Positions 57,297-57,454 of a stretch of DNA of 64,000 bases are shown here, in pieces. The notes beneath the pieces are model-generated. The model searched no databases and was not told where the DNA came from. It saw nothing but the letters and a program-made list of their open reading frames with translations. The DNA lies in the NCBI GenBank assembly GCA_018694295.1, contig JABHNK010000006.1, forward strand, positions 318 through 64,317. The letters run 5' to 3'. Source of the stretch: Waddliaceae bacterium. Lineage in GTDB: Bacteria; Chlamydiota; Chlamydiia; Chlamydiales; JABHNK01. Position 1 is the first letter of the stretch; each line of letters opens with the position of its first letter. A program made the translations under genes and the position numbers.

Positions 57297-57454
57297 CCGA
57301 TGTTACGCGCTAATCTTGCTTTAGTGGTGTAGCGAAAGGAGCAAGATGCAAGTACTTCCGACGAACCAAGCTCTGAAGAGCTGGGTGAGAAGGAATACGT
57401 AGAAGATTGTTCCTTGCAGCACGCCAATAAAGTGATAGAAGTGCGTAACATTAG
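57297..57454 (+). repeat. Family-B 158-nt structured repeat, copy B4
   Basis: Ends 34 nt before the ATG at 57489, in sense orientation. Terminal complementarity: CCGATGTTACGCGC / GTGCGTAACATTAG (13 of 14 positions pair, counting G-U). Confidence 0.85.

Follow-up and report, generated by a model that had tools for sequence, protein, structure and literature searches.

A dispersed repeat, here called family B, occurs four times in a 64,000-nucleotide (nt) stretch of contig JABHNK010000006.1 from a Waddliaceae bacterium (assembly GCA_018694295.1; this whole stretch is called the window below). It was found that family B is very probably a miniature inverted-repeat transposable element (MITE), that is, a non-coding DNA transposon. 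The explanation that I prefer, with reasonable but clearly lower confidence, is that MITE copies lie in the 5′ leaders of genes, where a selected RNA hairpin would act in cis on the messenger RNA (mRNA). The selected effect at the RNA level, as judged from sequence comparisons, is itself a tentative proposal, a little short of an even chance. An initial annotation of the window had left open whether the repeat is a MITE or a shared leader or small RNA (sRNA) that coordinates effector expression. The former suggestion is supported by the terminal inverted repeats, by a duplication of 7 base pairs (bp) that is specific to one register, by at least 19 dispersed sites, and by internally deleted derivatives.

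Copies, ends and target sites of family B

All four window copies (B1 to B4; Table 1) lie on the + strand; by direct reading and alignment, three of them are 158 nt in length and B2 is 103 nt in length. Their coordinates, as first annotated, were reproduced to the base by a profile hidden Markov model (HMM) and by a covariance model with filters off, neither of which detected a fifth copy in the window, and an independent repeat finder also recovered the family (as D2/D7/D9). Covariance-model matches at 19314-19375 and 27716-27770 were considered as extra copies and rejected because they are unrelated long palindromes. The lengths in the initial annotation were correct, while its estimate of identity at nine positions in ten was slightly high; the pairwise identity is 84.6-90.2%. 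The two blocks that it described as invariant have four occurrences each in the window, where dinucleotide shuffles predict 0.00-0.01. As before, no Rfam family was recognized: the window gave no match at the gathering score and only noise at E<=10, the best sub-threshold matches being 12-13 bits against gathering thresholds of 37-97.

The termini are 14-nt inverted repeats with the consensus CTGAYSTTACGCGC, which pair in all copies. The complementarity noted earlier for the ends therefore holds in every copy, but it is imperfect, with G.U pairs and one to three mismatches. Similarity among the aligned copies stops exactly outside CTGA...TCAG. The 7 nt on each side of the copies form direct repeats; three pairs are perfect (TTCACTA, TGATTAA, and TTACAAA) and eight have one difference. 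In the 7-nt register, 86 of 126 flank positions match over 18 sites, compared with 60.6 +/- 4.1 in permuted flanks (0/20000), while the registers of 5, 6, 8, and 9 nt are at chance, so that the duplication signal appears only at 7 nt. Targets are AT-rich heptamers, roughly TTAWAAA, that begin with T and end with A (T-N5-A). The near invariance of A(-1) and T(+1) means that a duplication of 5 bp, with the element ending in AC...GT, fits as well, and the two readings are inseparable here.

Three independent deletion derivatives have kept both ends and lost internal sequence at short homologies (AAGG or CGCG). The sequence lost from B2 corresponds to alignment columns 41-95, which form the 55-nt hairpin tip, and has AAGG microhomology at its borders. 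The copies fall into at least two subfamilies. No conserved open reading frame (ORF) was found in family B; the sole ORF, of 17-30 codons from an ATG at alignment column 50, varies in length and is broken or lacks the ATG in B1, B3, and the metagenome loci L022 and L014. A small peptide, for which a Shine-Dalgarno-like AAGGAG and then an ATG inside the element might speak, was rejected because this ORF is not conserved.

Is family B found beyond the window? The JGI metagenome contigs were scanned with TTTAGTGGNGTAGCGAAAGG, a pattern of 20 nt within the 5′ mid-stem, and 24 stretches (numbered with the prefix L) were obtained; L007 is a chance match, and the same locus across samples was merged. 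The resulting 15 sites and the four window copies make at least 19 distinct insertion sites with unrelated flanks. These counts are lower bounds, since the window's own four copies match the patterns exactly and yet were not among the returns of the metagenome and genome scans. In BLAST comparisons, the window and the metagenome loci have only family B and one other repeat family in common, and no genes. The metagenome Ga0209361 supplies 10 of the sites and also holds this organism's argR-B4 locus (Ga0209361_1000367). Thus, most of the further sites are probably elsewhere in the same genome or a very close one. The LigA and ArgR proteins and two more proteins of the window are identical in GCA_018648245.1, GCA_018671415.1, GCA_018656665.1, and GCA_018646305.1, and identical window proteins are also present in JGI metagenome 3300025602 (Ga0209361 contigs). 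The closest species representative is a Parachlamydiaceae metagenome-assembled genome (MAG; CP058704), whose LigA is only 59% identical, indicating a host from a chlamydial lineage that is uncultured and fairly isolated. A 19-base core of family B is absent from 185,579 species-representative genomes (Neisseria and enterobacteria included) and from IMG/VR, and blastn gave no match to family B in plasmid and phage collections. Either family B is lineage-restricted, or those collections lack or mask the host genome. The searchable literature yielded no MITE reported for Chlamydiota.

With respect to the mechanism of transposition, a DDE-type transposase supplied in trans would recognize the 14-bp termini and cleave at AT-rich T-N5-A sites, leaving a 7-bp duplication. 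The parent insertion sequence (IS) would be a DDE transposase ORF between CTGAYSTTACGCG inverted repeats.

Pairing in the predicted hairpin

Each full copy is predicted to fold as a single rod. The folding energies are -66 to -86 kcal/mol for the + strand RNA and -44 to -69 kcal/mol for the - strand RNA, and the + strand RNA is 12-34 kcal/mol more stable in every copy (-68.8 against -47.3 kcal/mol for B4). RNAalifold gave 51 pairs on 17 aligned copies, and canonical pairs make up 96.8% of the 844 pair cells. A lack of covariation had been named in the initial annotation as a sign against a regulatory RNA. Covariation was found: both partners have changed in 11 pairs, whereas shuffles gave 3.8 +/- 1.5 such pairs (0/500) and sliding the partners by 1-3 columns gave 0-4. 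Compensatory pairs exist in the interior, away from the ends that a transposase would bind (columns 47-113, 46-114, 57-102, and 69-91). The last of them, an A-U or G-C pair, closes the CCAAGCUC/GAGCUGGG hairpin; it had been noticed earlier and is real, with AU in 8, GC in 4, and GU in 3 of the 16 full copies.

The deviations from Watson-Crick pairing are asymmetric, with 94 G.U cells against 12 A.C cells. In columns with a Watson-Crick majority, derived G.U was found in 17 and derived A.C in 6. Paired columns have C>T and G>A events in equal numbers (15 and 14, respectively), so a mutational strand bias was rejected as the source of the G.U excess. Moreover, the 3′ block of the mid-stem, which is outside the search pattern, has an identity of 0.958, compared with 0.855-0.887 for the termini. 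I regard these patterns as moderate evidence for a role of pairing in the + strand transcript. It was also considered whether antisense copies have adapted toward - strand pairing after insertion. This was unconvincing; extra A.C pairs were found in L019 only.

Once transcribed, the whole element would form a single long, imperfect hairpin with about 51 pairs. The likely cis effect would be on the fate of the mRNA, through a 5′-proximal stem altering decay or through a substrate for RNase III. A broader proposal is that family B may be a mobile 5′-leader module. By inserting just past transcription start sites, it would put a selectively maintained rod of about 50 pairs at the 5′ end of many unrelated mRNAs, from housekeeping genes as well as host-interaction genes, and these would all depend on a common RNA-processing or RNA-binding factor (e.g., RNase III), as a post-transcriptional regulon built by a transposon; I regard this as unlikely.

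Could the strand-specific hairpin reflect movement as single-stranded DNA? A REP/REPIN-like element mobilized by a Y1 (RAYT/IS200-like) tyrosine transposase could explain why the + strand hairpin is far more stable than the - strand hairpin. GTAG is present in the mid-stem, and a gene for a protein with a Y1_Tnp domain and a DnaA_C helix-turn-helix (HTH) lies 445 nt downstream of the L019 copy. REPs are 20-40 bp in length, have a GTAG or CGTC tag, cause no target duplication, and depend on RAYT transposases (PMC3733652). Family B shares with REPs and REPINs the character of intergenic palindromes, and their RNA-level effects on transcript stability are of the kind proposed for family B; the Y1 gene is on one related contig. 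However, family B is a 158-nt element with terminal inverted repeats and not a 20-40-nt tagged palindrome, and the Y1 gene is near just 1 of 19 sites. Nor is the orientation linked to replication, an idea that was rejected because the copies do not track GC skew (11 positive and 6 negative) and are mixed along single contigs (L013 +, L018 -, and L024 + on Ga0209361_1000121). Above all, Y1 transposases leave no target duplication, so the clear 7-bp duplication excludes a RAYT-mobilized REPIN, and I give this alternative almost no credence.

Placement near gene starts

Among the 17 copies with usable context, on which all placement counts are based, a gene start lies within 100 nt in 14 cases. 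A same-strand gene start or transfer RNA (tRNA) gene is found 14-94 nt past the 3′ end of 12 copies, and an opposite-strand start is found within 100 nt of the 5′ end of four copies (B1, 28-29 nt; L018, 29 nt; L019, 36 nt; L010, 91 nt), while no copy lies between convergent gene ends. The gene distances first given for B4, B3, B2, and B1 (34, 48, 234, and 28 nt) were all accurate. Random placement and target-site duplications had been listed beforehand as arguments against a regulatory RNA; the duplications are indeed present, whereas the placement is not random. A promoter-like site whose -10 element ends 1-17 nt before the 5′ end, scoring at least 6.5 bits, precedes 8 of the 17 copies, compared with a background of 11.5% among comparable T-N5-A heptamers across the window, coding sequence included. 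In four copies, a promoter-like site reads in from the 3′ side, and in three of them (B1, L018, and L019) the nearest gene is antisense. Copies may land or survive in the short AT-rich stretch between the promoter and the ribosome-binding site or start codon of any gene. Judging from this placement between promoter and start codon, most copies would be transcribed as the first part of a 5′ leader.

The downstream genes are of every kind, and family B is not effector-specific. B3 and B4 do lie in sense before the ankyrin giant and another giant ORF, and a structure conserved with covariation would suit a dedicated leader or sRNA that coordinates secreted-effector loci. However, family B is also present before mutL, uvrD, rplM, copA, MFS, MATE, and ABC-binding-protein genes and before tRNA-Leu, while B1 and L014 are antisense. 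Target-site duplications are present, and a consensus scan of the four window copies and their edges found neither a sigma-70-like promoter nor an intrinsic terminator. Family B is absent upstream of ligA in the Parachlamydiaceae MAG, as it is from the species representatives. A coordinating effector leader is, on this evidence, very improbable. Two related candidates were rejected: an independent sRNA gene, since the four window copies have no promoter or terminator of their own, and a dedicated cis-regulatory leader of a regulon, since the downstream genes are unrelated, duplications flank the copies, and the nearest genome has no copy before ligA. The proposal that the repeat coordinates effector expression is not supported, given the functionally unrelated downstream genes and the missing promoter and terminator consensus. 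The RNA-hairpin part of that idea survives, as a cis effect proposed for a mobile element and not as an effector regulon.

Alternatively, the element may act as a promoter donor. GTGAGA at its 3′ end would serve as a -35 element and the duplicated AT-rich target, 17-18 nt further on, as a -10 element, making a hybrid outward promoter for the downstream gene; such promoters have been described for some IS and Correia elements. Hybrids of the form GTGAGA-N17/18-TATAAT or TAATAT were found in L018 (uvrD), L025, and B1. In L022, a terminator-like hairpin ATGCCCTATTCAT...ATGAATAGGGCATTTTTTT (about 11560-11610, in element orientation) stops some 5 nt short of the 5′ end of family B and overlaps the upstream target repeat. 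With this terminator directly against the 5′ side and the copA ATG just 18 nt past the element, another promoter would not fit, and no copA promoter is visible outside the element. The short distance to tRNA-Leu in L024 is also in line with promoter donation. Nevertheless, the consensus scan detected no sigma-70-type site in the four window copies or at their ends. The mean outward scores, 4.1 bits for the 3′ end and 2.3 bits for the 5′ end, are not significantly different (Wilcoxon p of 0.11), and the hybrid promoter is convincing in only 3 of 17 copies. Because a transcript that starts at the 3′ edge would lack the hairpin, promoter donation leaves the + strand G.U pattern unexplained. I consider it quite unlikely.

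The most serious alternative, which I find doubtful and yet of some substance, is a selfish MITE without an RNA role. The palindrome would then matter at the DNA level only, owing to the origin of the element or to transposase binding of both arms, and the position near gene starts would result from an AT-rich target preference together with purifying selection against insertions elsewhere. The duplication, the terminal repeats, and the decay products are all typical of MITEs. Several compensatory pairs are in the termini (3-157, 10-150, 13-147, 14-146, and 15-145) and are explicable by transposase binding, and the window copies are the most decayed, with -66 to -71 kcal/mol compared with -75 to -86 kcal/mol elsewhere. 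Variability is the same, 47%, in paired columns and in unpaired ones. The orientation toward the nearest start is 11 sense to 5 antisense with one unclear, which is not significant (two-sided binomial p of about 0.2).

These last two results count against MITE copies with a selected hairpin, and so do several others. Since the copies share descent, the covariation and the G.U excess are partly a matter of few events in master copies, and six consensus G.U pairs are one inherited state. Conservation of the 5′ mid-stem is inflated, because the search pattern is inside it. The promoter background contains coding sequence, and the promoter-like sites are consensus matches only. No transposase gene with family B termini on both sides turned up, either in the window or in some 250 kb of related contigs; matching of terminal repeats, inspection of ORFs, and a self-BLAST of the window yielded just solo ends and a second repeat family. 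Neither an empty site nor a presence/absence polymorphism was found by a search via identical flanking proteins (ligA, argR, and the 288-aa and 320-aa genes). B1-B4 are fixed in every assembly retrieved; the assemblies with the flanking genes all carry them at identical spacing, with B4 base-identical in 9 independent assemblies and B2 present in 4/4. The nearest other genome (by LigA) is too distant for a comparison of insertion sites.

Three observations nevertheless speak against the selfish MITE. The G.U excess exists despite a symmetric C>T and G>A spectrum, compensatory pairs are also found deep inside the element, and the mid-stem is more conserved than the termini, which is the opposite of the prediction from transposition competence alone. 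MITE copies whose hairpin would act in cis from 5′ leaders remain my preferred explanation.

Table 1. Features of family B, its neighbours, and family A (positions without a locus name refer to the window; L numbers are metagenome loci; aa, amino acids)
Feature	Position	Strand	Description
Copy B1	13832-13989	+	Full-length; flanks TGCATAA (13825-13831) and TGTATAA (13990-13996)
B1 neighbour	12523-13803	-	426-aa coiled-coil gene; B1 antisense to it, 28-29 nt upstream of its start at 13803
Copy B2	27591-27693	+	103-nt derivative without the 55-nt tip; AAGG/AAGG junction; GATCG-CCCTTG subfamily; flanks TTTTTAA (27584-27590) and TTTTAAA (27694-27700)
B2 neighbours	27928		ligA start, 234 nt downstream; divergent hypothetical gene 129 nt away
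Copy B3	40239-40396	+	Full-length; flanks TTATTCA (40232-40238) and TGATACA (40397-40403)
B3 neighbour	40445-46918		2157-aa ankyrin-repeat ORF, starts 48 nt downstream
Copy B4	57297-57454	+	Full-length, 158 nt; nhmmer 173.7 bits; covariance model 180.1 bits
B4 neighbours	57489		Giant-ORF ATG, 34 nt downstream; argR divergent, 142 nt upstream
B4 5′ terminal inverted repeat	57297-57310	+	CCGATGTTACGCGC; pairs with 57441-57454
B4 3′ terminal inverted repeat	57441-57454	+	Reverse complement CTAATGTTACGCAC
B4 upstream target-site duplication copy	57290-57296		ATTAGAA; 5/7 match to 57455-57461
B4 downstream target-site duplication copy	57455-57461		TTTAAAA
B4 5′ mid-stem block	57309-57335	+	GCTAATCTTGCTTTAGTGGTGTAGCGA; invariant in 4/4 window copies; pairs with 57412-57431
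B4 3′ mid-stem block	57412-57431	+	CCTTGCAGCACGCCAATAAA; mean column identity 0.958 over 16 copies
B4 apical hairpin	57365-57386	+	(A)CCAAGCTC-TGAA-GAGCTGGG(T); closing pair covaries
Derivative	L009/L020		Column 43 joined to the last eight bases; AAGG/AAGG junction
Derivative	L011 9773-9794		22-nt palindrome of two termini only
Downstream gene	L010/L027		MutL
Downstream gene	L018		UvrD
Downstream gene	L011		Ribosomal protein L13 (rplM); promoter-like site before copy, TTGGCA-17-TATCAT
Downstream gene	L022		CopA-type ATPase; element ends 18 nt before copA ATG
Downstream gene	L015		MFS transporter
Downstream gene	L028		MATE transporter; promoter-like site before copy, TTGATG-17-TATAGT
Downstream gene	L025		ABC substrate-binding protein
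Downstream gene	L008		1641-aa ORF, weak domain matches only
Downstream gene	L005		ORF of 606+ aa, no Pfam domain
Downstream gene	L024		tRNA-Leu(CAA), 14 nt downstream; promoter-like site before copy, TTTATA-17-TATACT
Family A	2328-2544, 4780-5024, 17233-17419, 32191-32305, 35643-35771, 54853-55272
Family A	L008 1-111 and 5486-5837; also L009, L015, L018, L019
Family B-type terminal repeat on family A end	54853-54865	+	CTGACCTTACGCA; family A spans about 54853-55272
Family B-type termini on family A	L008 98-111, 5824-5837

Known elements, a second repeat family and other features

Whole-length imperfect palindromes of 127 nt were reportedly described by De Gregorio et al. in 2005 as the ERIC/IRU elements of enterobacteria and Yersinia. 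Family B resembles them as a small, non-coding, intergenic, dispersed element of which the whole, and not just the ends, forms one long hairpin. ERIC elements are co-transcribed with neighbouring genes, have reported orientation-dependent effects on mRNA, and are described as inserting at TA. In contrast, family B duplicates an AT-rich 7-mer, is hosted by Chlamydiota, and clusters strongly within 100 nt of gene starts; the comparison does not imply any similarity in sequence.

The termini of Correia elements are 26 bp in length, their target duplication is TA, and they have an IHF site. Family B has unrelated termini of 14 bp and a 7-bp duplication; an IHF consensus was not seen in it, and promoters are found at few copies. 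The Correia elements of Neisseria (CREE/NEMIS) are MITEs of 100-160 nt close to genes. They can form promoters at their ends, and RNase III can bind, cleave, or protect them, with altered expression of adjacent genes as the result (PMC2649163), a cis effect of the kind proposed for family B. Membership in the Correia or ERIC groups was rejected, as the duplication is 7 bp and not TA and the pattern is absent from the 185,579 genomes. The analogy is functional only.

Bacterial MITEs are non-coding elements of 70-300 bp with terminal inverted repeats of 15-30 bp and resemble degenerate insertion sequences (PMC3733652). The RUP, BOX-associated, Nezha, YPAL, and SMAG elements fit the same general definition (PMC3733652), and no known family has the sequence of family B. 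By definition and behaviour, family B is a bacterial MITE whose sequence matches no described family.

The presence of at least 19 sites, of a second family with the same ends, and of decay products means recent DNA-transposon activity in an uncultured chlamydial lineage. Family B repeats also account for assembly breaks. For annotators, they are a caution that a common upstream sequence need not be a regulon signal. If the hairpin does affect transcripts, family B would be a simple natural system in which a mobile element rewires many 5′ leaders at once, a concept already established for Correia and ERIC elements.

The second dispersed repeat, family A, is up to about 350-420 nt in length and combines a GGCTGGGGGATTCCCCCAGCC hairpin with TTTTTCACCACAGAG(CC/AA)ACAGAG... 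arms and short runs of heptamers. The terminal repeat of family B (CTGACCTTACGC / GCGTAACATCAG) also forms the end of at least three family A copies. The same termini on both families imply a shared transposase. Solo ends of family B were found at L011 3159 and L019 3420. The former is the terminal repeat CTGATGTTACGCGCTA (3159-3174), which lies between two adjacent paralogous genes of 520-535 aa (1488-3095 and 3175-4737) with a metallophosphatase-like GNHD motif. In L019, the 315-aa Y1_Tnp and DnaA_C HTH protein is encoded at 209-1156 on the - strand of the locus, with TTCAATG and GTTCAGA heptamer runs between it and the family B copy; the protein is possibly a transposase of the RAYT type that is associated with other repeats. 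In L008, the 1641-aa ORF lies between the two copies of a duplicated module (1-238 and 5727-5965), which comprises about 130 nt together with a terminator-like hairpin and a family A end. The duplication does not provide an empty site, because only the first module is followed by family B and the divergence precedes the insertion point.

Near-perfect palindromes unrelated to family B are located at 19314-19375 and 27714-27772 (CGACAAAGCACTCCAAAGCG...; GAATACAAAAGCGTAGTAGATCAATTTT...), with 21 nt between B2 and the second. Both resemble bidirectional terminators. A 33-nt repeat ATAGCGGATAGGGATAGCGTTTAGCGGATAGAT with ATAGCG/GATAG sub-repeats is present at 27822-27854 and 34850-34882 (91% identical), one copy lying between B2 and ligA. 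The first 2170 residues of the giant ORF after B4 contain no Pfam domain; the ORF has (GCCTGA)n and (GAACTTGAA)n runs at 62297-62374 and 62664-62744, giving low-complexity acidic/proline repeats. The 2157-aa ankyrin ORF has tandem repeats of 87-114 nt, 62-86% identical, at 44250-44920.

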